From assembly GCA_023657465.1 (NCBI GenBank), contig JAGTJX010000003.1, forward strand, positions 311,889 through 375,888: 64,000 bases of DNA. Reading direction: 5' to 3'. Source of the DNA: Lysobacteraceae bacterium (GTDB lineage Bacteria > Bdellovibrionota > UBA1018 > JAGTJX01). Shown piece by piece: positions 14,640 through 58,880 of this stretch. The position numbers were made by a program, and so were the translations under genes. Position 1 is the stretch's first letter, and each line of letters begins with the position of its first letter. The notes below the pieces were generated by a model, which ran no database searches, was not told the DNA's origin, and saw nothing but the letters and a program-made list of their open reading frames with translations.

Positions 14640-15488
14640 ATGATCAGACAGGATGTCCGAATCTTCGCATTAATAGCGGTGGCTATCACAGCTACTGCGT
14701 GCGGAAAAAACACTAATAGTCTCGTAAAGAAAGTGGCTGCTCAGGCTACAACAATGAATGGAGACATATATGCAGCAGTCAGTGCAGATCTCAATACTGA
14801 GACCTACTCTGTTGCTGCGTTTTCTCTGCCCATTATCGACCCCAATAATCCAGCGATCCAGTACGGATCTATTAGTCTCAAGCCCAATGCCATCGGCGGC
14901 GGTGGACGGATTGTTATTTCAGTCAATGTAAGCAAAGCAGCTCATATCAATTCATCGGTCGCAACCACACTACCGAATGGAACTGCATTCCCGCTAGGTC
15001 TTCCTCCTACCGATAATCTGGTAGCTATCCCGATCGGTAACAACGGAGCCAAACTCTACGTTCTCATGGGTGCAAACACGCTCATGATTGGAACCGCGAT
15101 CCCCTTCTCAGCTCTGAATGATGTCGGAAGATATGTACCTGGAGTGAACGTGTTCTCTTCAGTTTCATTCGGCAAGATCAACTCATTCATCGGTGTGTTT
15201 GCTGGGAGTGAAATCAATCAGACAGGTCTAGGTATTTTCGCTGACCTCTCACAGATTCTACCGAATCAACCGACAGTGGCTCCAGAAGTCATTGCAAGTT
15301 CAGAATCTAGTAGTGTCTCAGCTGTCAGTGGTGAATCTCAAGCTTCGAGCAGTGGAGCCTCAAGCACTCCTGTCGTGAAGATCACTCTTAATGGATCCGC
15401 TCAGGGTTCTAAAGAAACCCAGAGACAACTTGCGTACCACTTATGGCGCGTGAGCGAAGAAGGACCTGCTGTCCTTAGGTACCGATAA
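14640..15488 (+). CDS. lipoprotein, function unknown
   Basis: Lipobox-like LIAVAITATAC|GK. The C-terminal half is Ser-rich. Confidence 0.6.
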   Translation: MIRQDVRIFALIAVAITATACGKNTNSLVKKVAAQATTMNGDIYAAVSADLNTETYSVAAFSLPIIDPNNPAIQYGSISLKPNAIGGGGRIVISVNVSKAAHINSSVATTLPNGTAFPLGLPPTDNLVAIPIGNNGAKLYVLMGANTLMIGTAIPFSALNDVGRYVPGVNVFSSVSFGKINSFIGVFAGSEINQTGLGIFADLSQILPNQPTVAPEVIASSESSSVSAVSGESQASSSGASSTPVVKITLNGSAQGSKETQRQLAYHLWRVSEEGPAVLRYR

Positions 15489-16270
15489 TGTTCCTCATCG
15501 TTTTTATGGTAGCCACATCTGCACACTCTGCAGATGTGGTAAACCAATCCCAAACTGAAAATGTCTTGGGCAGAGCTATGGGCGCCACTACAACATCCAG
15601 TGCACCTGAAGGATTACAACGCCTGAAATCCTCGACTGCACTCGTTGTCCTAGGGAAGATCATTCCCGCTCTTCAAGCTATCGGAGGAGTACCTAGTCTA
15701 CCGAACGAGCCAGGAACTCTTGAGTACTATTCTTTTGGCAAAAGAATTTTCGCTGAAAGCTCTTATTCAAAAGGGAATGGATTCCTTCAAGCAGAAGTAG
15801 GTCTTGCTCCTGTAGAAGTCAGAGTGCCCATCATTAAGTATCCCATTGGTCCCCTTGTTCTGGGTATCGATGGAGGCGTGAGATTCCAAGCTCAAGTACG
15901 AGGTCAGATTCAACCCACGATCTGGACCAATCCAGTGAGTAACTCCATCATCAACATGAAGATCTCAGGCAATGCAGCGGGACAAGCGTTCTTAGAAGGC
16001 TCCGCTCAACTCGTCGTTCTTCGTGGCGGATTGGGTGGAGACGTCGAGCTCATCGACGGCAAAATTGATTTGGATTCTAGTTTTTATTTTAACGGTACGA
16101 GTCCGCAAGCCCAGCTCTCTACTCTTGTTCAGATGATGTACGGAGGATTCTATGCCTTTGCAGATGTCTTCAACGTTTTCGGATGGAAATGGAAACGTTT
16201 TTGGAAAGCAGACCTCTTCACCTGGAAGGGCAAGTGCTTTTCGTCAGGAAAACTATCTTGTACAAATTAA
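15488..16270 (+). CDS. secreted hypothetical protein
   Basis: Signal peptide MFLIVFMVATSAHSA. TAATG stop/start overlap with the upstream gene. Confidence 0.5.
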   Translation: MFLIVFMVATSAHSADVVNQSQTENVLGRAMGATTTSSAPEGLQRLKSSTALVVLGKIIPALQAIGGVPSLPNEPGTLEYYSFGKRIFAESSYSKGNGFLQAEVGLAPVEVRVPIIKYPIGPLVLGIDGGVRFQAQVRGQIQPTIWTNPVSNSIINMKISGNAAGQAFLEGSAQLVVLRGGLGGDVELIDGKIDLDSSFYFNGTSPQAQLSTLVQMMYGGFYAFADVFNVFGWKWKRFWKADLFTWKGKCFSSGKLSCTN

Positions 16271-17901
16271 AAATCGTTCTTGCGATCACTCTCCTCACCA
16301 GCGTGGGAGTGCTGATCGTGGGATCACACAAAACCGAAGAACCGTCCAGTCATATTGAGCGAGATGATCGCACACCTGCGTCCCGATTGAAATGCTCTCT
16401 TCATTCCCTTGAGTTTGCACCGAAACCGGGAATGAACTACACCTATTCTTACTCACGCAAAATAGACTTTCATGGAAGCTCAATCGAACCAGTCTTCTAC
16501 CATGGAGACCTCATTGTCTCTGTTATTAAGACTAACGATAAAGGATTTGAAGCCATCGTTCAGAATTTAATCACTGAGAATCAAGATCATTCACATATAA
16601 GTTTAAGAGTACTGGTGTCTACAAACGGAGAAGACATTACTTTGTTTCAGAGTCACTCTCTTCAGCCTGACGAAAACCAAAGCATCTCCATTCTGAAGGA
16701 CATGATCTCACTTCTGATTTTCTCGTCACAGGAAGATACTACTGGAAAGTATCACTCAGAAATGAAGCTAGAAAGTGAGAGCAGTGAGCTTAGGAATTTT
16801 GTAAAAACAAAACTCACTTACATTGCTCAGAATTCACCGACTCCTGCCATACTCAAATCCAAACATGATCTCATTTGGGATTCTCATTTAGGAATGCCTC
16901 TAACCCTTTCTGGCGATGAACTCACCCAATTCGGTAATCTCACAATTCAAATCCTAGCAAGCTATCAGATCAATCTCACTCACGTGAATCAGAGTTCAAA
17001 CATCGATCCACTCATCTCATCACTGACAGAGAATACCCCTCTCGCACTAGAACTTGATACTAACGAAAAAACAGATGAGAAACTTCTTCATACAATGCAA
17101 CAGGCGAAGGCGATGGATTGGGAAGTGATCACTCAAAAACTCAATCAAATTGAAGTGCTCAATTCTCAAGAGCAACTCAAAGTCTTCGGTGAACTGGTCA
17201 AATCTCTCAAAGCTGGAAAAACCAGAGTCACCGGACTCATGGATTTCCTCAAGACAAAGAATGTTCTTAAGCAAGGTGAGAAGTCTGCGATCTTCAAAAC
17301 ATCGACTGGCGCTCTGGCTTCCCTGGGTACTCCAGAGGCACAATCTGCGCTGATTGAGATTTATAATGATCCAGCAGTCCCCACCTCGGGTCGCGGGACT
17401 ATCCTCTCTGCACTCACAACCATGTCATCACCGCAGACGCCCGAAACGCAGAAACAACTGATTGAAACAGTGAAGAATGAATCCAACCCTAATCTCTCGC
17501 TCGGTGCTGCCTACGCTGTGAGCGCTTTTCCAACAGCTCCAGTCGTAGAACTCATTCGCGATATGAAGCATGAACAGCTTGAAACCGCAATCGATATGAT
17601 TGGAAACAGTGGGAGTGAGAAGTTTCTTCCTGATCTAACTAAAATCATTACTGGGGACAATCCCACTTCAGTTAGAGCTAAAGCTGTGTTTGCATTAAGA
17701 TCCATTCCAGGTGTTTCAGCTGCTCAATTCCTAGGTCAGTGTTTAAGCGATCATGATGTTCAAGTTCGTGAATCAGCAATCGATGTTATCCTCAGCACTC
17801 CCTGGACGAGTCACTATAGTGCAGCCATTAATAACTGCATATCTCAAGAGACGAATAGGTATATACGTTCTCAGTGCATCAAAGCTCATCCGAGCAGCTA
17901 A
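16183..17901 (+). CDS. membrane-anchored protein with C-terminal HEAT/PBS-lyase-like repeats
   Basis: TM segment IVLAITLLTSVGVLIV. C-terminal repeats such as VRAKAVFALRSIPGVSAAQFLGQCLSDHDVQVRESAIDVI. An alternative TTG start at 16258 with SD AGGAAA would remove the 88-nt overlap with the upstream gene. Confidence 0.5.
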   Translation: MEMETFLESRPLHLEGQVLFVRKTILYKLKIVLAITLLTSVGVLIVGSHKTEEPSSHIERDDRTPASRLKCSLHSLEFAPKPGMNYTYSYSRKIDFHGSSIEPVFYHGDLIVSVIKTNDKGFEAIVQNLITENQDHSHISLRVLVSTNGEDITLFQSHSLQPDENQSISILKDMISLLIFSSQEDTTGKYHSEMKLESESSELRNFVKTKLTYIAQNSPTPAILKSKHDLIWDSHLGMPLTLSGDELTQFGNLTIQILASYQINLTHVNQSSNIDPLISSLTENTPLALELDTNEKTDEKLLHTMQQAKAMDWEVITQKLNQIEVLNSQEQLKVFGELVKSLKAGKTRVTGLMDFLKTKNVLKQGEKSAIFKTSTGALASLGTPEAQSALIEIYNDPAVPTSGRGTILSALTTMSSPQTPETQKQLIETVKNESNPNLSLGAAYAVSAFPTAPVVELIRDMKHEQLETAIDMIGNSGSEKFLPDLTKIITGDNPTSVRAKAVFALRSIPGVSAAQFLGQCLSDHDVQVRESAIDVILSTPWTSHYSAAINNCISQETNRYIRSQCIKAHPSS

Positions 17902-19655: not shown

Positions 19656-20290
19656 TTAGTATTGCTTATGTCTCTTTGGCAAAATCACAATGAACTTAGT
19701 ATACTGTGAACGTTTATCAATGGTGAGAGTGCCGTTATGATTATCAATCATCATCTCTTGGAGTTCTACTCTCCCTCGAATCGCATCCAGAGACTTCCCT
19801 AGCTCATGGGCAATACCAGCTGCAAGTTCACCCACACTTACCATTTTATCAGATTGGACTAGAATGGCCCGGTCACACTCTAATTGTTCTTCAATTAGTT
19901 TTCGCTCTGTGATGTCTACACGGATAGCAACATATTTAAACGGACGGTTCTCCTCACCTACAAAAGGTACGATGGTAGTAAATACCCAATAGAACGATCC
20001 ATCTTTAGTTTTATTTTTGATTTCACCTTTCTATACTTTTATTGAAGAAAAAGTCGTCCAGAGTTCTTTGAAAAAATCATGAGAGTGATGACCAGAATTG
20101 ACAATTCTGTGATTTGTTCTATGAGTTCATCTCTAGAATACTTCGAGATTTCACAGAATTTATCATTTACATAGGGAATAGTTCCTTTGGCATCCGTGAA
20201 TGCAACCATCGAAGAATAATCAAGTGCATGCCTCAAATCATCTACTTCTTTCAAGCTACGCTGTAATTGTTCTTCTACACTGAGGAACTA
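19656..20290 (-). pseudogene. degraded paralog of the PAS sensor histidine kinase at 39350..40474
   Basis: Fragments VAFTDAKGTIPYVNDKFCEISKYSRDELIEQ and KDGSFYWVFTTIVPF...VSVGELAAGIAHELGKSLDAIRGRVELQEMMI-DNHNGTLTIDKRSQYTKFIVILPK align to the intact kinase in three frames. There is an in-frame stop, and ~170 aa of the HATPase domain is deleted. Confidence 0.75.
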
Positions 20291-20310
20291 CATCCATTGA
20301 AGAAAAGAAT

Positions 20311-21118
20311 CTAATACTTATCAGCGTTAAATTTGAATTTAAGTAAAAACGACAGATTGAGCGTATCACCTAATCCTGAGTGACCATCGTAAAGTAGAAC
20401 ATCTGCAGTCTTCATCGCATTGACCATGTACCTATGGAATGTCATGTCCTTGGAATCTATCACAGTATCAGCGAGTAGAGCAGGAATTCTAGGGTCAATG
20501 TACAGGAACGAATTTAAAGATTCGCGAGGGCGCACCTCTGTCGTATCCCTTATAAACAATATTTTGGAAATAAGGAATTTGGAAGCCCTCGTCTGCTTTT
20601 TTCATGACTAGAACGAAACGCGAAGTTCCCGCCACGGGAGCTCCTTTATAAATTCGAACTCCTGGTTTACCGGCCGCCTCGATCGAGAATATGGACGGGA
20701 AACTTTTGGCCAACCATTCTGGGATAGGCTCATCTCCCTTTTCTGAATGAATAAGGGTGCGAAAAACTACTGAATTTTTATCTCCCAAAGCAATATAGGC
20801 CGTCCCATTTTTCGAGAGGATTCGCTGAAATTTTGAGAGAACGGCGTACAGTTCCGAGGTGTAAGTGAATACACCGAATACATCGCTAATGAGATCGAAG
20901 GGAGCGCTCCCCGTTAGCTCTTCATCTGGTATCTTTTCTAAATACCGGCCTGTGAGTACTCGAACATTCGAAGTTTTGGGAACTTCATAAGACCTTCTCC
21001 ATGGATCGATTTTGAAGGTTACCACAGTAACCTTAGGCAAAGGCCCTGAAAAGGAATTCAGAATGTTGTTGTAAAAATTCAGATATTTTTTGTAAGCATC
21101 AGGGGCTAGAAGGTGCAC
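20311..21118 (-). pseudogene. hypothetical protein (methyltransferase-like segment), frame-disrupted
   Basis: Two overlapping ORFs (20495..21118 with a GTG start, and 20311..20559) appear to be one gene broken near 20500-20560. FDLISDVFGVFTYTSELYAVLSKFQRILSKNGTAYIAL resembles a post-I methyltransferase motif. Confidence 0.3.
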
Positions 21119-21936: not shown

Positions 21937-22887
21937 TTAGACAGATGGCAAAATCTGCTTTGCTTCAAAGAGATCAACGACTTCCTTCATTGCAGCCATA
22001 TCACTCGGTAATACCCTGAGGGTCTGAGTAGCACCTTTTTCATCTACACCAGCCAACCGGATATACTTCTGCATGGTCTTTAAATCAGCCCAGCCACAAA
22101 TCTTCATGACCCTTGCCGAAGCAACGTCATTGGCTAAAAGCTGGGTTGCAAAGCAAGCACGAAGCGTATGGAAACGGACAGAACGTACACCAATACCAAT
22201 GCAGAACTTCCGTAACATATTCGCCTGACGCCCAGCATCCCACTCATGGAATCGAGGAAGTACATGCTCCCTCTTTTCTGCACTGGCCTTTAGTTCTAAC
22301 AACAGAACCAAAAGCTCATCTGAAATAGGAACTGTTCTCCAGCATCCACTCTTAGTGCTCTTCACCACTCTCCGTCTAGAATGATAGGACTTGGAGACAG
22401 TGATTTTTCGATCTTGAAGGTTAACATCACTCCACAACAAAGCATGGAGTTCGCCATTCCTCATTCCCGTTAATAAAGCCATTACCCATATGGAATACCA
22501 AGGATGCTCAAGCTGCTTGGCACTGCGTAGTAGACACCGAATTTCATCAAGGTTCAATATTTCAGGAACCTTTTCAACCTTTCGATTGCTCAACGCTAGT
22601 CCTTGCACGGGAGCTTCACGCACACCTGGAATCAACCTTTGCTCGATTCCCCATCGGTAAACAAGATTGATGGTGTGCTTGACTTGTTTTCGATAACCGA
22701 GAGAACGACCAGCATTTTCCATCAATGAAAATACCTCTCTGGCATCTCCTATCGTCAGCATTGACGCTGGCCTTTCCAACCATGCTTTCGTCCAGCGACT
22801 TAAACTACTAACATGATCGGTGATGGTGTTCGGCTCATAAGAATATTTTGTTTTATCTCTTACGGCTTCTTCCCATCTCGCAATCAC
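21937..22887 (-). CDS. tyrosine-type site-specific integrase, core-binding and catalytic domains
   Basis: HTLRACFATQLL (HxxR) and KICGWADLKTMQKYIRL (catalytic Tyr) at the C-terminus. GTG start overlapping the upstream ORF stop (GTGA). Confidence 0.85.
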   Translation of the reverse strand: MIARWEEAVRDKTKYSYEPNTITDHVSSLSRWTKAWLERPASMLTIGDAREVFSLMENAGRSLGYRKQVKHTINLVYRWGIEQRLIPGVREAPVQGLALSNRKVEKVPEILNLDEIRCLLRSAKQLEHPWYSIWVMALLTGMRNGELHALLWSDVNLQDRKITVSKSYHSRRRVVKSTKSGCWRTVPISDELLVLLLELKASAEKREHVLPRFHEWDAGRQANMLRKFCIGIGVRSVRFHTLRACFATQLLANDVASARVMKICGWADLKTMQKYIRLAGVDEKGATQTLRVLPSDMAAMKEVVDLFEAKQILPSV

Positions 22888-39349: not shown

Positions 39350-40474
39350 TCATTTAGGAAGGGTGATTACAAATCGAGTATTGGGTGAAGCCTGATCTAG
39401 ATAAATTTGGCCGTTATGTTTTTCAATGATTGTTCTGGAAATACTTAATCCCAAACCCGAACCCTTTCCAGCGGGCTTTGTTGTAAAAAAAGGAAGGAGA
39501 ATTTTTTCAGCGATTTCCTGCGGGATGCCTTTTCCGCTGTCAGTTACAGCTATCACTATGCATGAGTCCTGATCTAATACTTGGATTTTAATCCATTTTT
39601 CAGAAAATCCTACAATAGCGTCTCTAGCATTGCCGACTAAATTCACCAGAATTTGACTGATCTGAGTTTCTTGGCAATTGACTTCGATCCGGTCATCAAC
39701 CTCAGAGACATCTACGAGAATATTGTTCTTCTGGAGACCTTCATTTGCAAAACTTAAAACATCTTTCACTAAAAGACCTACTGACACTTTTTGAAAAGGA
39801 TCATGAGTGCCATCTCGCGACAATGCTCGCATTCCACGAATGATCCGAGTCATTCGCTCGGTCAGCTCTTTTACTGTCCCAATACTTCTCAAAATTTCTT
39901 CAGACGTGGACTTTCCTGATAAAATTTGCATTTCAAGAAACTCCATCCTGCCGCTGATTGCAGCTAATGGATTTCCTAACTCATGTGCGGTGCCTGCCGC
40001 TAATTCACCCAAGCTCGCCATTTTCTCAGCATGCAACAGAGCTACGCGCTGATCTTGCGCCTGTTCTTCTATCTGTTTTAGTTCGGTAATATCCGTTCGA
40101 ATCGCAACATACTGAATAGGCTTTCCTGATGAATCCATAAAAGGAACAATCGTGGTAAAGACCCAATAGAAGGTTCCATCTTTAGCTTTATTCTTGAGCT
40201 CACCTTTCCATACTTTTCCTGCAGAAATTGTTCTCCAAAGATTGCTAAAAAACTCTTTATGATGATGAGCTGAATTGATTAGACGATGAGTTTTTCCAAT
40301 CAACTCCTCTCTCGAATATTTTGAAATCTCGCAAAATTTGTCATTCACATACGTGATGACTCCATTTGCGTCTGTAAAAACGATGATGGAGGATTGATCC
40401 AAAGCACGACGTAACTCGTCCGCATCTTTTTCGCTTCTGATTAGTCGTTCTTCGACGCTCATTTGCTTACCCAT
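39350..40474 (-). CDS. cytoplasmic PAS-domain sensor histidine kinase
   Basis: PAS (FTDANGVITYVNDKF), H-box LGELAAGTAHELGNPL, and HATPase motifs (NLVGNARDA, DSGKGIP, GSGLGLSIS). Confidence 0.85.
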   Translation of the reverse strand: MGKQMSVEERLIRSEKDADELRRALDQSSIIVFTDANGVITYVNDKFCEISKYSREELIGKTHRLINSAHHHKEFFSNLWRTISAGKVWKGELKNKAKDGTFYWVFTTIVPFMDSSGKPIQYVAIRTDITELKQIEEQAQDQRVALLHAEKMASLGELAAGTAHELGNPLAAISGRMEFLEMQILSGKSTSEEILRSIGTVKELTERMTRIIRGMRALSRDGTHDPFQKVSVGLLVKDVLSFANEGLQKNNILVDVSEVDDRIEVNCQETQISQILVNLVGNARDAIVGFSEKWIKIQVLDQDSCIVIAVTDSGKGIPQEIAEKILLPFFTTKPAGKGSGLGLSISRTIIEKHNGQIYLDQASPNTRFVITLPK

Positions 40475-53375: not shown

Positions 53376-53756
53376 CTAAATCCTTTTCCAAATCAGGATT
53401 GCTCGGCCAAAAGACTCTTGAGGAGTAACTAGTGTAACTTCATCGCCTTTGAACTCGGCGTAACGGATCATCTCCCGTCCAATCCTGGCTGGATTAGAGG
53501 CTTGGGTGACCTGATGCTTGATCGTGTTTCCTTCAACTCGGTAGGTACCAGAATAAAAAAGAACGGAGTCGAACTTGTTCTCAAATTCGTTCTCTGAGTC
53601 GTTCTCAACTTTCTTATTGATGCTAACGCTGACGTGACCTGAGTCGGTGTAGATGAGCAGTCCATGGGTATCTTTCCCCCAAGGCGTGATCTGCTTCTCA
53701 TTGTCTTCGATATTGAACGCAACAAGCTTCCAAGTGCCAATTACTGATTGGGTCAT
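53376..53756 (-). CDS. lipocalin-like domain protein (Lipocalin_5-like)
   Basis: GTWKLVAFNIEDNEKQITPWGKDTHGLLIYTDSGHVSV pattern. Confidence 0.5.
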   Translation of the reverse strand: MTQSVIGTWKLVAFNIEDNEKQITPWGKDTHGLLIYTDSGHVSVSINKKVENDSENEFENKFDSVLFYSGTYRVEGNTIKHQVTQASNPARIGREMIRYAEFKGDEVTLVTPQESFGRAILIWKRI

Positions 53757-53851
53757 AATATGCCTTCTTCTAAGTTAAGTATCAGGCTAGTTTGTATATA
53801 TGAGACCAGAACTTGTCAACAGATTGAAAACAAAGAAGAATTTAATTTTTA

Positions 53852-53869
53852 TTGAGACTTGAGTCTCAA
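53852..53869. promoter_or_regulatory. palindromic motif TTGAGACT-TG-AGTCTCAA (copy 2 of 2)
   Basis: It shares TTGAGAC...GTCTCAAG with 33305-33320 and lies ~95 bp upstream of the lipocalin gene start. Confidence 0.4.
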
Positions 53870-53870
53870 G

Positions 53871-54116
53871 CTATGTCTTTAGATTTACTTGGAATTCTGT
53901 AAGCCTTTCTATTTTCTCAGCCGCGTCATAAACCTCCTTGCGGAAGTCTTCAAGGATATAGCTAATCCCAAGCATTGTTTCTATGGGGTCTACAGGGGTC
54001 TCTTGAAAATACCCCTGACACTCTACAAACCAGGCCACTCCTGAGAGCTTTCGACTTAATCGGTACAAATCTGTGTAGACGGCCTCTACAGCAACTTTAT
54101 TAGAGCTATTTATCAT
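53871..54116 (-). CDS. hypothetical protein
   Basis: 81 aa with no motif; located in the tRNA-adjacent islet. Confidence 0.35.
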   Translation of the reverse strand: MINSSNKVAVEAVYTDLYRLSRKLSGVAWFVECQGYFQETPVDPIETMLGISYILEDFRKEVYDAAEKIERLTEFQVNLKT

Positions 54117-54184
54117 TGACCCTCCCTGAATACATATGATCGTGCTTACACATCATCATGCTTATTTGCAACGATTGTTTTATG

Positions 54185-54415
54185 GCAACAACTCTCAGCA
54201 ACGATGATTTAAGATTTCTTAAGAAGCTAGGATTGAGAATCCGTTCCTTACGAAATGAAAAAGGCTGGACGCTTGAGGATGTTGAGTCGCATGGCTGGAA
54301 CGGCTGGCAGCATCTTCAAAAAATTGAATCTGGAAAAAACATCACTGTTGTGACGCTTCGTAAAGTTGCGAAGCTATACAGGATCACAATCTCTCAACTT
54401 CTTGAGGGATGTTAG
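54185..54415 (+). CDS. XRE-family HTH transcriptional regulator
   Basis: LRIRSLRNEKGWTLEDVESH...LQKIESGKNITVVTLRKVAKLYRITISQLLEG. Confidence 0.7.
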   Translation, partial: ATTLSNDDLRFLKKLGLRIRSLRNEKGWTLEDVESHGWNGWQHLQKIESGKNITVVTLRKVAKLYRITISQLLEGC

Positions 54416-54536
54416 AGTTTTTCTATCAAGAACAAAAATACCAAAATTAGAGTAAGCCACGAGCTGTTAGCTGATCACGAAACTGATCGATTTGTTCTTT
54501 CCTTTCACAACCATCTGATGCTACCATTAACAGCAG

Positions 54537-56999
54537 TTAGGTAAACGCGAACTGATCCTCACAGCCTTGCGCCTTACAAACAGGTTTATTGAGCGAGTCT
54601 GGCCGCTTGAACCGCTTTCCTTTACAAGATGTACATGCAAATTTTTCACGAAATTCCTTGAAATTTCTCCAACGGATCTTCTCATCTCCAACCGATCCCC
54701 AACTATTCGGATCAGATTGAAAGTGACTTCCAAAATTTTCGATTAGTCCTCTTTGTAAGGAGAGGAGAAATGGATTTTGGTGACCTGGAACTGTAGGTGG
54801 AAAGAGGCTTCGATTTTCTAGAAACGTGTGTAAAGCCAAAGCAAGCTCATGGCGCTGATGTGAATGCTCCTTGCCGATTTCCCTAATACGAATACTTACG
54901 CCAAAATCTCGACCGATCTTATTTAACCATTCTTCTTCAGCCTGTCTCATCAAGTTGGCAGCAGACTGCTCTAATCGGTGTAATTCTTCAATCTCATGGT
55001 CGAGAACTTGGTGGTCAGAGTAGCGTGGTCCGAAGGTCTTATCGAGTCGGGAAATCCTTTTAAATCTCCATTGAGTAGGTGTTAACTGATCTTCAAGAAA
55101 GCGATAGAACTGTTCGTCGTGAGTCAAAATAAAAACCTGAAAGCCTGATAGGTGTGTCGCAATAACGTCAACAACAGCTTTTCGTCGATCAGCATCGTAT
55201 GAGGTAACAACATCATCTAGAACAATAATTGGGAATCCTTTATTAAACATGCAGATTGAGGCAAGTCTGATTGCCAATGCAAGCGTATGAACTTGTGAGT
55301 CACTCAGATATCCGGCTGGTGGAACACTTTTTCTACCTTCAGCGAAATCAATGAGTAAATCTAGTTGGTGCTGAATTTTTTTATCACCAGGCGGAAACGA
55401 CAAATGAATTACTGGAACACCTTCGACACCAGTTTGGATTTCGTTGTAGAAGAAATTTATTTTGTCTGTCAAGGTCGAGATCAGAGTTTCGACATAGGAT
55501 TTAACTGAGGTGTCGACTATCGACGCATATTTTACTACAGCATCATGAATTTTTTGAACTTCCGACTTTCGACGTACTTCATAGTCAGCGCGCTCTTTGA
55601 GACCCGTTAACTTCTCTAGTGCATCATGCCCCGATTTCCATGTCGGCTTTCCTACCTCCTGCGGCTTCGGAATGGCAGGAGATAAATGTTCGAGTAACGT
55701 CTGAAGAGTCGTCTGCGCCAAATCAAATTTGATCGGGCTTCCAGAATAGGTGTATTTATCGCAAGCCGTCGCTGCTTCCTGAATAGGCTGAAGATCGATT
55801 GAAGATGATGTCTGTTTTAGTAAGTCCAAGATCGAGTTTAGGCAATCTTTCACTTCGCGTATCTTGGTCTCAACAACCATCTTTGACGCTTTCAATGCTT
55901 TCTCGGTGTCATAGTAGGTGGTCAAATGCTTCAGACTATTTTCCAAAGTAACTTTGATCCCATCAACTGATTTCGATGGTGTCTGGGTAATAGGCGTCTC
56001 GCAGACCGGACAATTATCTAATTGGATAGTAGGACTTTTAAAAAGTAGTTCAGCTTCGCGCCAAACATCAGCAAAGATAGCTTTTTCACTTTGGTTTTTT
56101 GTTTCAGAAAATAGTTCTTGGGCCTTCTTGTAGGATTCAATCGCAGTGTTACAGGTCGAAAAAGTGGCAACAGTAAGTGCCACTTTTTCGACCTTATTCC
56201 CAAGAGTTTGCTTGATCTTGTCGGTAATAGTTTTGTTAAGTACAGAGCTTTCATTTGATAATGCTTCAGCAGCACGATCGAATAGAACTTTCTTGATTCC
56301 CGCACACGAATCAAGAGCATCCACCTTAAGTACATTGTCGAGTGGAGTCAGTATAGTGTCGTTAAACCAAGCTACGCACCGAACTTCGTTCCACTGTTGC
56401 TCTTGACTGTTAGTGAGCCGTTTGACTTCACCGTTAATAGTGTCGAGCTGAGTCTGGTCATTGAGTGCACGATTGAGCTGTACACGCAGTTCACGAAGTG
56501 AATCTTGCGTCTTGAGAAGAGGATTGAAACCAAACCAGTTTGAAACCGCTTCGTACCTATCTGATGGACTCGTTGCCTCAACAAACTTCCTAAGCTCAAA
56601 CCCACGAATGATGTACGGAACCTTCATCGCTTCAAGTGCGGTAGCAAGATCGTCTGGAATCACTTCAGGAGTTTTAGCAGAGCGACTGAAAGGCTGTACC
56701 TGTGCCGCCCCAATAAACTCAACTTTAACAAAAGGACTAATATTCGCCTTGGTCGCAGCATGATGTACAAGTGCCTCTTTACCGGCCTGAGTTCCAGAGC
56801 GGACTTTACCAAGCCGCTCGACAAAGCCATCTTTGGAAAAAACAAATTCCATGGCGTCCACCAAACTGGATTTACCTTTTCCGTTGGGAGCCACTACAAC
56901 AAGTGATGACCCATTCTTTCCGAAGTCGATGGGCTGTTCCGAGAGGTAGGCACGAAAACCGGAGAGCGTGAGCTTTTTAAGCCTTGGAGGTATTGTCAT
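54537..56999 (-). CDS. SMC/Rad50(SbcC)-like ABC ATPase with central CPxC zinc hook and novel Cys-rich C-terminal extension
   Basis: N-terminal Walker A VVVAPNGKGKSSLVDAMEF and a long helical middle with DNCPVCETP. The C-terminal Walker B/D-loop is IIVLDDVVTSYDADRR, followed by FILTHDEQF. The extra ~170 aa end in CTSCKGKRF...CKAQGCEDQ. There is a strong SD GGAGG before the ATG. Confidence 0.7.
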   Translation of the reverse strand: MTIPPRLKKLTLSGFRAYLSEQPIDFGKNGSSLVVVAPNGKGKSSLVDAMEFVFSKDGFVERLGKVRSGTQAGKEALVHHAATKANISPFVKVEFIGAAQVQPFSRSAKTPEVIPDDLATALEAMKVPYIIRGFELRKFVEATSPSDRYEAVSNWFGFNPLLKTQDSLRELRVQLNRALNDQTQLDTINGEVKRLTNSQEQQWNEVRCVAWFNDTILTPLDNVLKVDALDSCAGIKKVLFDRAAEALSNESSVLNKTITDKIKQTLGNKVEKVALTVATFSTCNTAIESYKKAQELFSETKNQSEKAIFADVWREAELLFKSPTIQLDNCPVCETPITQTPSKSVDGIKVTLENSLKHLTTYYDTEKALKASKMVVETKIREVKDCLNSILDLLKQTSSSIDLQPIQEAATACDKYTYSGSPIKFDLAQTTLQTLLEHLSPAIPKPQEVGKPTWKSGHDALEKLTGLKERADYEVRRKSEVQKIHDAVVKYASIVDTSVKSYVETLISTLTDKINFFYNEIQTGVEGVPVIHLSFPPGDKKIQHQLDLLIDFAEGRKSVPPAGYLSDSQVHTLALAIRLASICMFNKGFPIIVLDDVVTSYDADRRKAVVDVIATHLSGFQVFILTHDEQFYRFLEDQLTPTQWRFKRISRLDKTFGPRYSDHQVLDHEIEELHRLEQSAANLMRQAEEEWLNKIGRDFGVSIRIREIGKEHSHQRHELALALHTFLENRSLFPPTVPGHQNPFLLSLQRGLIENFGSHFQSDPNSWGSVGDEKIRWRNFKEFREKFACTSCKGKRFKRPDSLNKPVCKAQGCEDQFAFT

Positions 57000-57237
57000 C
57001 TACCTCCTCCTTCTTTTCAGCCTGTGCTCTTGTCGCCGCGAGATCCATCAGGCGCTTCAACGCCTTTGTGATATTTTCTTTTTCGTCACCGTTTGGATTA
57101 AGGAGATCACTTTCGATGGTAGCCAACACTTCGACATCGCCGTCTTTAATTTCCTTTAAGGATTTTTTTAAATCCGAGTAAAGGACTTCTATGCTGAGTA
57201 TCTTGGAATCAGCCACATCTGTGTTTGTCGTCATCAA
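56977..57237 (-). CDS. small acidic protein, translationally coupled upstream partner of the ATPase
   Basis: 86 aa, net acidic (many D/E). Its stop overlaps the ATPase start by 23 nt. Confidence 0.4.
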   Translation of the reverse strand: MMTTNTDVADSKILSIEVLYSDLKKSLKEIKDGDVEVLATIESDLLNPNGDEKENITKALKRLMDLAATRAQAEKKEEVDDNTSKA

Positions 57238-57365
57238 TGCCCCATCGAAATAAACGATCGTTGCTATCGGATTCAGGCAGGTTATATTCGCATTTCACTA
57301 TTTTGTCGCTCGCTTTGATATGACCAGTATCGTCAATAAAGAAAAATTAAACATCAGACACTCTG

Positions 57366-57524
57366 CTAATAACGTGCTGATTTAGGTGAAGAGCTGTTCT
57401 TCATCGACCTCACAAACTCCTTTTTCGCAAACTCGCGGAGCTTTCCATACTGTCCAAGTGCAATCGACAACACGATCACTGCAATCAACCCGTTAATCAA
57501 ATCCCTTAAATCAAATGCCTTCAT
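57366..57524 (-). CDS. small (52 aa) single-TM membrane protein
   Basis: Not in the ORF track (<60 aa). Found by eye as MKAFDLRDLINGLIAVIVLSIALGQYGKL..., with SD AGGGAG upstream of the ATG. Confidence 0.35.
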   Translation of the reverse strand: MKAFDLRDLINGLIAVIVLSIALGQYGKLREFAKKEFVRSMKNSSSPKSARY

Positions 57525-57748
57525 ATTTCGTTCTCCCTTTTTGGTTAAACGACCAATGACAATCTGGTTGGATAAACTCTTTTTCCAAAAAACACCTTAG
57601 CCAAAAGCTAGCCAAATTTTAGCCAACTCAAGACAGTCGAGGCATTTTCGGGACAGTTCGAGGCTTCGTTTTGAGGCTCAACAGCAAGATAACGGGGTTA
57701 TATGTTTCAACTACTTAGAACTCGGAACCAAAATCGGTTGCCGAAAAA

Positions 57749-57835
57749 TGGTGGCTCCGAAGAGAATCGAACTCTTACACCCTTGCGAATACCAGATTTT
57801 GAGTCTGGCGCGTCTACCAATTCCGCCACAGAGCC
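57749..57835 (-). tRNA. tRNA-Leu (anticodon CAA)
   Basis: 87-nt cloverleaf GGCTCTG-TG-GCGG-AATTGGTAGAC-GCGC... with anticodon loop CTCAAAA. It has a long variable arm, T-loop TTCGATT, acceptor 3' strand CGGAGCC, discriminator A, and an encoded CCA. The D-arm is nearly identical to E. coli tRNA-Leu. Confidence 0.9.
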
Positions 57836-57863: not shown

Positions 57864-58880
57864 TCATCTGATCCAAGACCAAGATCTCATTGCAAGATCC
57901 CCGTCTGGAGAGAGATCATACTTAGCTCCCATAGGGAGCGGCGCGTTGTCGCCCCCGTGGCCACAGGGCAAACCCTGAGCAACAGGGATTTTAAACTCCT
58001 CAGTGAGTACAGAGAATATCGCAGCGATCAGATCCTTGTCCTTCACTTGAGGTCTCAATTTCTCTAGGTTCATGGGCCTTGGTGACTTGGCTATCATCGC
58101 TCGCTTCTTGGGATCTTTGATGTACTTCAATGCCCCAGGTACTTTATCGACACAATCTGTGAATGAACCCAAAACCACAGCCTTTACACCTTCGAAGAAC
58201 TTCGCGTGAATGAGGTGGTGAACCATTCGATCTAATCTTGCAGCAGTCTCTGAGAGATCTTCGAGGAAAACAATTTTTCCTTTTGCATTGAGCGAGAACT
58301 CCGTTCCCACCATATCATTCACTAGACAGAGATTTCCACCCGTCATTTCACCTGAGATCAAGTTGCGAGGTTTTTCACCTAACCATTTTAATTTTCGACC
58401 TATCCACGCTGGAGGTGTGGGCATACCTCTGATCCAAGAATAGAGCACACGTAGCTCACGAGGCTGAGCATAGAGTAGACCTCTGTGGCCTGGCATGACT
58501 GCATGAAGTGTAGACCAGTTCCATCGTGTGCGAGTAAACTCCAGAAGTGCAGTTGAGTCTGAGTATCCAATGTAAAGTTTGTGTGGGGGTAATCCACGTT
58601 TCTCGGTTTCTTTCGCAAGTAACGGAAGCAGCTGAATCGCGCCATATCCACCTCGAGCAGCCCAGACTACATCAATCGTTGGATCATAAGCTGCATCTAA
58701 GAAGTCCTTCAAACGAGTCGCAGTATCACCTGCGTAATACAAATGCTTCTTCAAAACTCCACCGTAAACCTTAGGAATGAATCCTGCTTGCTTCAGTGTT
58801 TCTAATCCCATTTTGAGTTCGTTGCGCGCAACGACGGATGAAGGCGCAACGATTGCGATGTTTTTCACTCCCAACTTCAT
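57864..58880 (-). CDS. LD-carboxypeptidase (peptidase S66, LdcA/MccF-like)
   Basis: N-terminal IAIVAPSS...LKDF..A..DP, a central Ser-containing segment and C-terminal GHGGDNAPLPMG. Confidence 0.7.
   Translation of the reverse strand: MKLGVKNIAIVAPSSVVARNELKMGLETLKQAGFIPKVYGGVLKKHLYYAGDTATRLKDFLDAAYDPTIDVVWAARGGYGAIQLLPLLAKETEKRGLPPHKLYIGYSDSTALLEFTRTRWNWSTLHAVMPGHRGLLYAQPRELRVLYSWIRGMPTPPAWIGRKLKWLGEKPRNLISGEMTGGNLCLVNDMVGTEFSLNAKGKIVFLEDLSETAARLDRMVHHLIHAKFFEGVKAVVLGSFTDCVDKVPGALKYIKDPKKRAMIAKSPRPMNLEKLRPQVKDKDLIAAIFSVLTEEFKIPVAQGLPCGHGGDNAPLPMGAKYDLSPDGDLAMRSWSWIR

Follow-up and report, generated by a model that had tools for sequence, protein, structure and literature searches.

A composite locus at tRNA-Leu and its predicted two-gene ABC-ATPase defence cassette

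The C-terminal domains of PrrC and RloC are classed as HEPN (Anantharaman et al. 2013, PMC3710099), and the two proteins share the motif Arg-x3-Glu-x36-52-His, often with a Ser before the His; e.g. R692, E696 and H737 in G. kaustophilus RloC (PMC2610378). HEPN-like folds without the canonical R-x4-6-H motif can be non-catalytic (PMC3710099). In the "long" form of the Lamassu protein LmuB, Walker B is hhhhDD, there is a single CxxC, and a small gene lies upstream (PMC12663957). Features of RloC and of Lamassu are combined in an unnamed protein pair, an 820-amino-acid (aa) ATPase and the product of a small gene, orf86, found here in a stretch of 64,000 nucleotides (nt) of contig JAGTJX010000003.1 (positions 311,889 to 375,888; the whole stretch is called the window) and in at least 82 fetched genomes of many phyla.

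The pair is located in a block of about 4 kb (53757-57748) next to a tRNA-Leu(CAA) gene, which an earlier note had taken for one small accessory islet. The block is a composite and lies where a 40 kb segment of distinct composition meets the tRNA; this segment is missing from L003, the closest relative having tRNA-Leu. The comparison relatives are all metagenome contigs. As judged from sequence comparison, the tRNA-Leu gene, the spacer beside it, two small genes (orf52 and orf81) and a lipocalin operon are a frame kept in another lineage, L007, and orf86 and the ATPase gene make up a cassette that is predicted to be a defence or abortive-infection module. The layered reading as a whole, i.e. 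an acquired 40 kb segment, a conserved frame, a 3.3 kb insert in that frame and a defence cassette with the mechanism proposed below, is favored with moderate confidence. The compositional island has about tenfold the size of the block first flagged and is itself ordinary, an accessory segment at a tRNA gene being ordinary genomic-island biology; the cassette is the more valuable part of the locus.

The orf86-ATPase cassette

The annotation of the window is based on a listing of open reading frames (ORFs), on Pfam and PADLOC profile searches and on an ARAGORN tRNA scan. Gene calls and Pfam agree with the earlier placement of the block between an LD-carboxypeptidase/engB side and an operon of lipocalin, solute-binding protein (SBP), histidine kinase (HK) and response regulator (RR) genes. 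Five ORFs lie between the LD-carboxypeptidase gene and the lipocalin gene (81 aa, XRE, 820-aa ATPase, 86 aa and 52 aa), and the 81-aa ORF, the XRE regulator and the 52-aa membrane ORF exist as first listed. What had been described as an ATPase pair is one ATPase together with an 86-aa ORF that is no ATPase. The features of the block and its two neighbors are:

57864-58880: LD-carboxypeptidase gene (Peptidase_S66), one neighbor of the block, with engB beyond
57749-57835, minus strand: tRNA-Leu(CAA) by ARAGORN, the sole tRNA in the window, beside the block as had been noted and with its 3' end (57749) facing it
57525-57748, minus strand: spacer separating orf52 from the tRNA, at about 78% nt identity to L007 (match 48-493), not kept in L003
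57366-57524, minus strand: orf52, 52 aa, small basic protein with a single transmembrane segment, isoelectric point (pI) 10.2
56977-57237, minus strand: orf86, 86 aa, small acidic helical protein, pI 4.6, overlapping the ATPase start by 23 nt; its true start is probably the ATG at 57234
54537-56999, minus strand: 820-aa SMC_N/AAA_23 ATPase of Rad50/SMC type with a coiled-coil insert (Pfam SMC_N 1e-16)
54540-55094, minus strand: C-terminal domain of the ATPase, residues 636-820
54158-54415, plus strand: XRE-family helix-turn-helix (HTH) regulator (Pfam HTH_3 2e-7), convergent with the ATPase gene and divergent from orf81; its start may instead be the ATG at 54182
53871-54116, minus strand: orf81, 81 aa, small acidic protein, pI 4.7
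53376-53756: Lipocalin_5 gene, the other neighbor of the block, in the Lipocalin_5, SBP, HK, RR operon

Searches of Pfam, PADLOC and NCBIfam with orf86, orf81 and orf52 give no match.

Motif conservation in the ATPase was measured in alignments of 16 and of 69 family sequences. Walker A (APNGKGKSS, 56865-56891), the signature (GYLSDSQ), Walker B (IIVLDD), the D-loop (TSYDADRR) and the H-loop (THDE) are all conserved, and a CPVC zinc hook (C330-P-V-C333, 56001-56012) that is 100% conserved in the 69 sequences lies within the coiled-coil insert, with long helices at residues 345-394 and 454-521 of the AlphaFold2 (AF2) model. The model has a predicted local distance difference test (pLDDT) score of 80 and Rad50 and SMC as its top Foldseek matches; Rad50 and SMC heads are also best in a profile search against the PDB. 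The PADLOC LmuB model PDLC03859 matches residues 139-637 at 3e-29, and the LmuAB structure 9ux7 ranks 43 in the Foldseek search, with Rad50 and SMC above it. Pfam and NCBIfam yield no family for the ATPase beyond generic ATPase models at cut-off; Pfam AAA_13 reaches 21.2 bits against a cut-off of 36, and distant family members are also under the cut-off. As a separate observation, the ATPase ORF holds a perfect 17-nt inverted repeat with an 8-nt loop (56153-56194, residues about 269-282) in a variable, low-confidence region. It is absent from the homologues in two other genomes, L001 and L002, with which its 3' arm aligns and its 5' arm does not, a pattern that suggests a templated (quasi-palindrome) mutation.

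The C-terminal domain of the ATPase is restricted in its distribution. A profile of it finds 312 hits among 1.84 billion cluster representatives, and the best 150 of the 312 matches all belong to the protein's own family, with the domain at the C-terminus of proteins of ~800-830 aa or of fragments of them. Conservation among 69 representatives is concentrated at R685 (98%), E689 (95%), N755 (95%), S758 (86%) and H759 (97%), and at the four cysteines C789, C792, C808 (98% each) and C813 (90%). With moderate confidence the domain can be described as a HEPN-like bundle of helices that carries R685-x3-E689 … N755-x2-S758-H759 and has a C4 zinc ribbon after it. Foldseek finds no significant match to the domain in the PDB. 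A reading of the zinc ribbon as an HNH nuclease was rejected, as there is no conserved His or Asn between the cysteine pairs.

A word-based search gave 22 relatives of the ATPase, and an alignment-based scan of species-representative genomes gave 121 full-length ones at 33-40% identity. The family occurs in Alpha-, Beta- and Gammaproteobacteria, Chloroflexota, Planctomycetota, Acidobacteriota, Actinomycetota, Nitrospirota and Gemmatimonadota, and also in one Nitrosopumilaceae archaeon and on one Bradyrhizobium plasmid; a scan of viral contigs found none. An ORF of 65-100 aa ends at or overlaps the ATPase start in all 82 fetched loci with upstream sequence. These small partners share the motif D..L..IL..H.L...P...AV..A..AI..LA..RA followed by an acidic tail, a hidden Markov model (HMM) built from half of them recovers 41 of 41 held-out ORFs, and an HMM built without the window's own clade matches orf86 at E = 9e-8. 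Homology at the nt level to L001 (contig GC 0.53) and L002 (contig GC 0.42) covers 57234-54542 exactly, i.e. the two genes only, at ~70% identity. The orf86-ATPase cassette moves as a unit between unrelated genomes, by horizontal transfer across phyla. The XRE gene stands beside the cassette in none of 89 fetched loci, and orf81 and orf52 likewise never accompany the pair elsewhere; the XRE gene is part of the insert yet outside the conserved cassette.

Defence-type genes are frequent around the pair. In L002 the neighborhood holds UvrD, HEPN, an Eco29kI restriction-modification system, Vsr and an integrase. At least 24 of the 74 nearest downstream genes match PADLOC families (E <= 1e-8); these 74 genes include 11 DUF3223/HamC2, 9 Mrr + nSTAND3 (PDC-S73), 2 defence reverse transcriptases and 2 GajB-like helicases, and at 8 more loci an HD-CE + HATPase protein lies near the cassette. 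A variable third gene directly after the ATPase, on the same strand and often overlapping it, is seen in 29 of 83 loci, being Mrr_cat + nSTAND3 in 10, DUF3223/HamC2 in 11 and HD-CE + HATPase_c in 8; no third gene is shared by all 83. These genes may be alternative effectors or separate neighboring systems.

Likeness to RloC was judged from the published motif (Davidov & Kaufmann 2008, PMC2610378) together with Pfam AAA_13. Both proteins are single polypeptides of ~800 aa in which an ABC ATPase head is split by a coiled coil; both have a CxxC zinc hook (C291 in RloC, C330/C333 in the window ATPase) and a C-terminal helical domain with Arg-x3-Glu and then Ser-His (R685, E689 and S758-H759 in the window ATPase); and both are patchily distributed in defence contexts. 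Unlike RloC, the window ATPase has 69 residues between Glu and His rather than 36-52, carries the extra C-terminal C4 zinc ribbon, and has a small acidic partner gene obligatorily upstream where RloC stands alone; moreover the profile of its C-terminal domain finds its own family only, among the best 150 of 312 matches. The cassette family can be placed as a putative ABC-ATPase defence protein with a fused effector, closest to RloC and with Lamassu-like traits.

By the proposed mechanism the Rad50/SbcC-type zinc-hook ATPase would dimerize through its hook and probably sense DNA ends or foreign or damaged DNA. An ATP-driven rearrangement would then release the fused C-terminal HEPN-like domain, whose RloC/PrrC-type R-x3-E…S-H residues may cut RNA, most likely tRNA, so that translation would stop and the infection be aborted. 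The zinc ribbon may supply binding to nucleic acid or to a partner. For the co-translated orf86 product two alternative roles are proposed, one as an LmuC-like adaptor of the ATPase and the other as an inhibitor holding the nuclease inactive. It is possible, and put forward tentatively, that orf86 and the ATPase are an undescribed, self-contained two-gene anti-phage system that joins a Lamassu/SbcC-like zinc-hook DNA sensor, an RloC-type HEPN RNase and a zinc ribbon under the control of a small acidic partner, in evolution and mechanism a bridge between Lamassu and the RloC-type anticodon nucleases, carried as a 2.7 kb cassette across phyla and into archaea.

The Lamassu traits allow another derivation, in which the cassette is a reduced Lamassu made up of LmuC and LmuB, with LmuA lost or supplied in trans. 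LmuB is the top PADLOC match (3e-29) of this SMC/Rad50-like CxxC ATPase, which is located in defence islands; LmuAB 9ux7 is among the Foldseek matches; the small gene ahead of the SMC-like gene is positioned as LmuC is ahead of LmuB; the hhhhDD Walker B and single CxxC zinc hook fit "long" LmuB (PMC12663957); and a variable same-strand gene comes directly after the ATPase in 29 of 83 loci. However, the window holds no separate LmuA-like gene, nor do the 83 loci have a conserved one; no LmuC model matches orf86, which has no detectable similarity to LmuC; and the effector-like part is a conserved 185-aa domain of the ATPase's own, fused to its C-terminus and lacking in LmuB. Rad50 and SMC also outrank LmuB in the fold search, and a reduced Lamassu is considered unlikely.

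Rad50-Mre11 and SbcCD provide the best sequence and fold matches for the ATPase head, coiled coil and zinc hook, and since Rad50 and SMC heads are the closest solved relatives, the pair might be a housekeeping or DNA-repair SMC-like complex of SbcC/Rad50 or RecN type that plays no part in defence and whose C-terminal domain only binds nucleic acid. That non-canonical HEPN-like folds can be non-catalytic (PMC3710099) is in accord with such a role, as is an SbcD-like Metallophos gene near a few loci. The family differs from these complexes in its far shorter coiled coil, in having no adjacent Mre11 or SbcD gene, in the extra C-terminal domain and zinc ribbon, and in its mobile, patchy distribution. 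It is rare, with 312 clusters among 1.84 billion representatives, and patchy, occurring in many phyla, in one archaeon and on one plasmid; copies at ~70% nt identity occur in genomes of GC 0.42 and 0.53; its neighbors are restriction-modification, HEPN, STAND, reverse-transcriptase and Gabija-like genes; and the pair is absent at this locus in the closest relatives. A repair function is accordingly held to be quite improbable. If activity is confirmed for the predicted defence system, it would be a compact system in which an ABC ATPase carries its effector as a fused domain and has a small regulator of its own, offering a tractable test of Rad50-like sensor control over a fused nuclease, and it would be among the few defence candidates noted in Bdellovibrionota-like bacteria.

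The conserved frame and the 3.3 kb insert

The loci L006 to L009 were reached through homologues of the SBP gene. L007 has tRNA-Leu(CAA) at 52-138, followed by a spacer 78% identical to that of the window, an orf52 homologue (368-493, 71% aa identity over 42 residues) and an orf81 homologue (547-780, 53% aa identity) that overlaps the orf52 homologue by an ATGA junction; four further genes including a PIN_4 protein come next, and then the lipocalin, SBP, HK and RR genes. The 81-aa ORF, earlier called an orphan, therefore has a homologue downstream of tRNA-Leu in L007, and so does the 52-aa ORF. By blastn, window 57839-57399 corresponds to L007 48-493 and window 54065-53962 to L007 595-698, and a third homologous stretch is window 53851-53369. 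From the gaps in this nt homology the window-specific DNA is delimited as:

54117-57398 (about 54.1-57.4 kb), no strand: window-specific insertion of ~3.3 kb between orf52 and orf81, edges approximate

The insert contains the XRE gene, the ATPase gene, orf86 and their upstream region, and sits ~350 nt from the tRNA. L007 lacks the ATPase cassette while keeping the tRNA and both small ORFs; orf52 and orf81, on this comparison, are to be counted as conserved frame genes outside the insert. The homology of orf52 with L007 breaks at about 57399, its last ~10 codons coming from inserted DNA. Direct and inverted repeats at the insert termini are at noise level (79 inverted pairs in 4 kb).

Other lineages carry other cargo in this interval. 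L007 has its own insert of 3.8 kb between orf81 and the lipocalin gene; at L007 858-4335 (L007 to L009) lie a 442-aa PIN_4 protein, which matches a defence model weakly, and genes of 378, 189 and 128 aa. In L006 a split PDC-S06/AAA_13 ATPase, a candidate defence gene, lies upstream of the lipocalin gene (2-1914). Different defence-type genes are found between tRNA-Leu and the lipocalin gene in each relative examined, and the interval from tRNA-Leu to the lipocalin operon, with three cargoes in three lineages, is a hotspot of cassette exchange.

These comparisons bear on the earlier proposal that the 4 kb block (53757-57748) is a single integrative islet inserted at the tRNA-Leu 3' end by a site-specific recombinase and since ameliorated. 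The block does adjoin the tRNA 3' end, its composition is indistinguishable from that of its left flank, and its gene content varies among relatives: the gene order is not the same in L003, L004, L005 or L007, with unrelated genes after the tRNA in L003, no tRNA behind the LD-carboxypeptidase gene in L004 and L005, and no cassette in L007. To this extent the block is accessory as proposed, but it is not one 4 kb unit. The spacer, orf52 and orf81 are kept in L007, so that only 54.1-57.4 kb, ~350 nt away from the tRNA, is window-specific; the compositional boundary is not at 53757, and the distinct segment that abuts the tRNA is ~40 kb long. Since the block has neither an integrase nor an attachment (att) repeat, there is no support for tRNA-directed integration of the 4 kb itself, and a single islet of this kind is very improbable. 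The insert would more plausibly have arrived by cassette exchange in a defence hotspot, through recombination in or near the conserved flanking genes and not through an integrase acting at the tRNA.

The spacer between the tRNA and orf52 shows three TTGGCTA(A/G) repeats at 11-12 nt spacing (~57590-57625, minus-strand sense), which are also present in L007 at ~255-300. Their TGGC-N9-GGC pattern is similar to the sigma-54 -24/-12 element, and several sigma-54 activators are encoded in the window. The repeats may be a candidate promoter or operator for orf52 and orf81. A promoter and terminator scan gave counts equal to shuffle expectation.

The low-GC segment of about 40 kb

Three relatives, L003, L004 and L005 (87%, 80% and 89% aa identity), share with the window the upstream order relA, gmk, yicC, accA, fliL, sigma-54 activator, engB, LD-carboxypeptidase. 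Past the LD-carboxypeptidase gene each of them is unlike the window and unlike the others, and a tRNA follows that gene in L003 but not in L004 or L005. By blastn the L003 nt homology spans window 64000-57744, ending 5 nt past the tRNA 3' end, and by tblastn the L003 tRNA-Leu is followed by homologues of window 16183-17901 (HEAT repeat), 15488-16270 and 14640-15488, colinear and in the same orientation. Because L003 is colinear on both sides and is without window 17902-57748, these 39.8 kb are an insertion or a deletion relative to L003. The tRNA 3' end is thus a real synteny breakpoint with L003, as the earlier note's choice of boundary implied. The segment and its contents are:

17902-57748, no strand: low-GC segment of ~39.8 kb, both ends approximate, missing at the tRNA-Leu locus of L003
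21937-32563, minus strand: module like an integrative and conjugative element (ICE); Pfam Phage_integrase, HTH_17, FtsK_SpoIIIE, TrbI, TraG P-loop/VirB4-like and TraC_F_IV
21937-22887, minus strand: tyrosine integrase (Phage_integrase), 316 aa; ahead of it lie a 70-aa ORF in another frame and an HTH_17 excisionase-like ORF
about 24.8-32.2 kb: conjugation-type genes within the segment
34-53.7 kb: stress/regulatory cargo of ~20 kb, with Dps, CBS, two Usp, Hsp20, BON, beta-CASP nuclease and two-component systems including the lipocalin/SBP/HK/RR operon

The mean GC content at third codon positions (GC3) is 0.362 inside 17.9-57.7 kb (n=31 genes) and 0.446 in the pooled flanks (n=20; Mann-Whitney p = 2e-8), and the non-conjugative cargo alone, at 0.365, differs from the flanks with p = 3e-7. 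Overall GC is 0.412 inside against 0.452 in the left flank (1-17.9 kb) and 0.465 in the right flank (57.7-64 kb). Steps in composition occur at about 57.7 kb and about 17.9 kb and there is none at 53757; a two-breakpoint fit without constraint puts the low-GC domain at ~12.5-56.3 kb, such a test having no finer resolution. The 4 kb block alone has GC 0.430, lies within the window range in dinucleotide signature and codon-usage distance, and matches its left neighbors. The suggested check of block against left flank reveals no difference, whereas the 40 kb segment against its flanks does. Block and left flank are alike because both belong to one low-GC segment, so that there is no need to invoke the earlier idea of an old, ameliorated insertion. 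The unremarkable composition of the block by itself had been weighed as an argument against foreign origin, and gene-wise GC3 across the whole window overturned this.

Like tRNA-associated islands and ICEs, the segment abuts a tRNA 3' end, is variable among relatives, is distinct in composition, and contains genes for a tyrosine integrase and an FtsK ATPase of coupling-protein type together with ones resembling VirB4/TraC and TrbI. Unlike them, it has no flanking repeat of the tRNA end, its integrase is distal and possibly disrupted, no relaxase is recognized among the ORFs scanned, and one operon of its cargo is typical of the host lineage. The earlier note had found no direct repeat of the tRNA 3' end, and k-mer, Smith-Waterman and targeted boundary searches bear this out: no 13-mer of the tRNA 3' end is shared anywhere else in the 64-kb window, the best Smith-Waterman score over the window is 24 against shuffled maxima of 20-30, targeted att comparisons at 17.8-22 kb, 32.5-34.1 kb and 53.7-54.2 kb score inside the shuffled range, and no att-like repeat is present at either segment end or around the conjugation module. 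A frameshift in the integrase is possible, its 70-aa and 316-aa ORFs being in different frames.

Gain of the segment is favored on the basis of its composition together with its mobility genes. The GC3 of L005, L006 and L007 is mostly 0.28-0.41 (higher for lipocalin and orf81-like genes) and that of L003 and L004 is 0.45-0.5; the former values are close to those of the segment, which makes a lower-GC relative a plausible donor, and the most likely source of the segment is another, lower-GC member of this Bdellovibrionota-like bacterial group. If instead nothing but the 3.3 kb insert was acquired, 17.9-57.7 kb would be ancestral, lost or rearranged in L003, L004 and L005, and its low GC3 regional or functional. 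Simple deletion does yield the L003 map, L007 shares the linkage of tRNA, orf52, orf81 and lipocalin operon, the SBP/HK/RR operon is widespread in Bdellovibrionota at ~50% identity, and att repeats were not found. It is difficult to reconcile such an ancestral state with GC3 changing sharply, by 0.084, at either side of 31 genes of unrelated function, with the integrase and the type IV secretion/conjugation gene set in the segment, or with a segment GC3 like that of the lower-GC relatives and not that of the window's own flanks. Absence of any gain beyond the insert is therefore rated as rather unlikely.

Several points weigh against the layered reading. An att-type direct repeat is found at neither end of the 40 kb segment nor of the 3.3 kb insert, the integrase sits at the tRNA-distal end and may be disrupted, and a deletion in the L003 lineage gives an identical gene map, which leaves composition as the one argument for gain. 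The lipocalin/SBP/HK/RR operon, being common in Bdellovibrionota, is odd cargo for a mobile element. Every relative compared is at about 75% nt identity or less, and all come from metagenome contigs. As to the cassette, the arginine of the canonical HEPN R-x4-6-H motif is not conserved (at position 754 no more than 59% of sequences have E); Glu and His are 69 residues apart, beyond the 36-52 of RloC; and neither Pfam nor the C-terminal-domain profile, in its best 150 of 312 matches, provides a sequence-level link to AAA_13, RloC or PrrC.

A genome scan with the LD-carboxypeptidase protein alone recovered no relatives, and look-ups of the exact sequences of this protein and of the ATPase matched no record. 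The homologues of the LD-carboxypeptidase carry Bdellovibrionota names, and the gene content of the window points the same way; NCBI protein entries of 100% identity belong to a metagenome-assembled genome (MAG) labelled "Xanthomonadaceae bacterium", a label that probably reflects a mistake of taxonomy or of binning. A 158-nt fragment (19962-20119) is 74% identical to 40139-40296, part of a PAS histidine-kinase gene (39350-40474), and short PAS-like ORF fragments (ORFs 20039-21118) adjoin the integrase. These pieces resemble remnants of genes at the low-GC segment's distal end. The lipocalin gene (53376-53756) has a GC3 of 0.54-0.59 against 0.31-0.39 for its operon partners, in the window, L006 and L007 alike, which is a codon bias specific to this gene.

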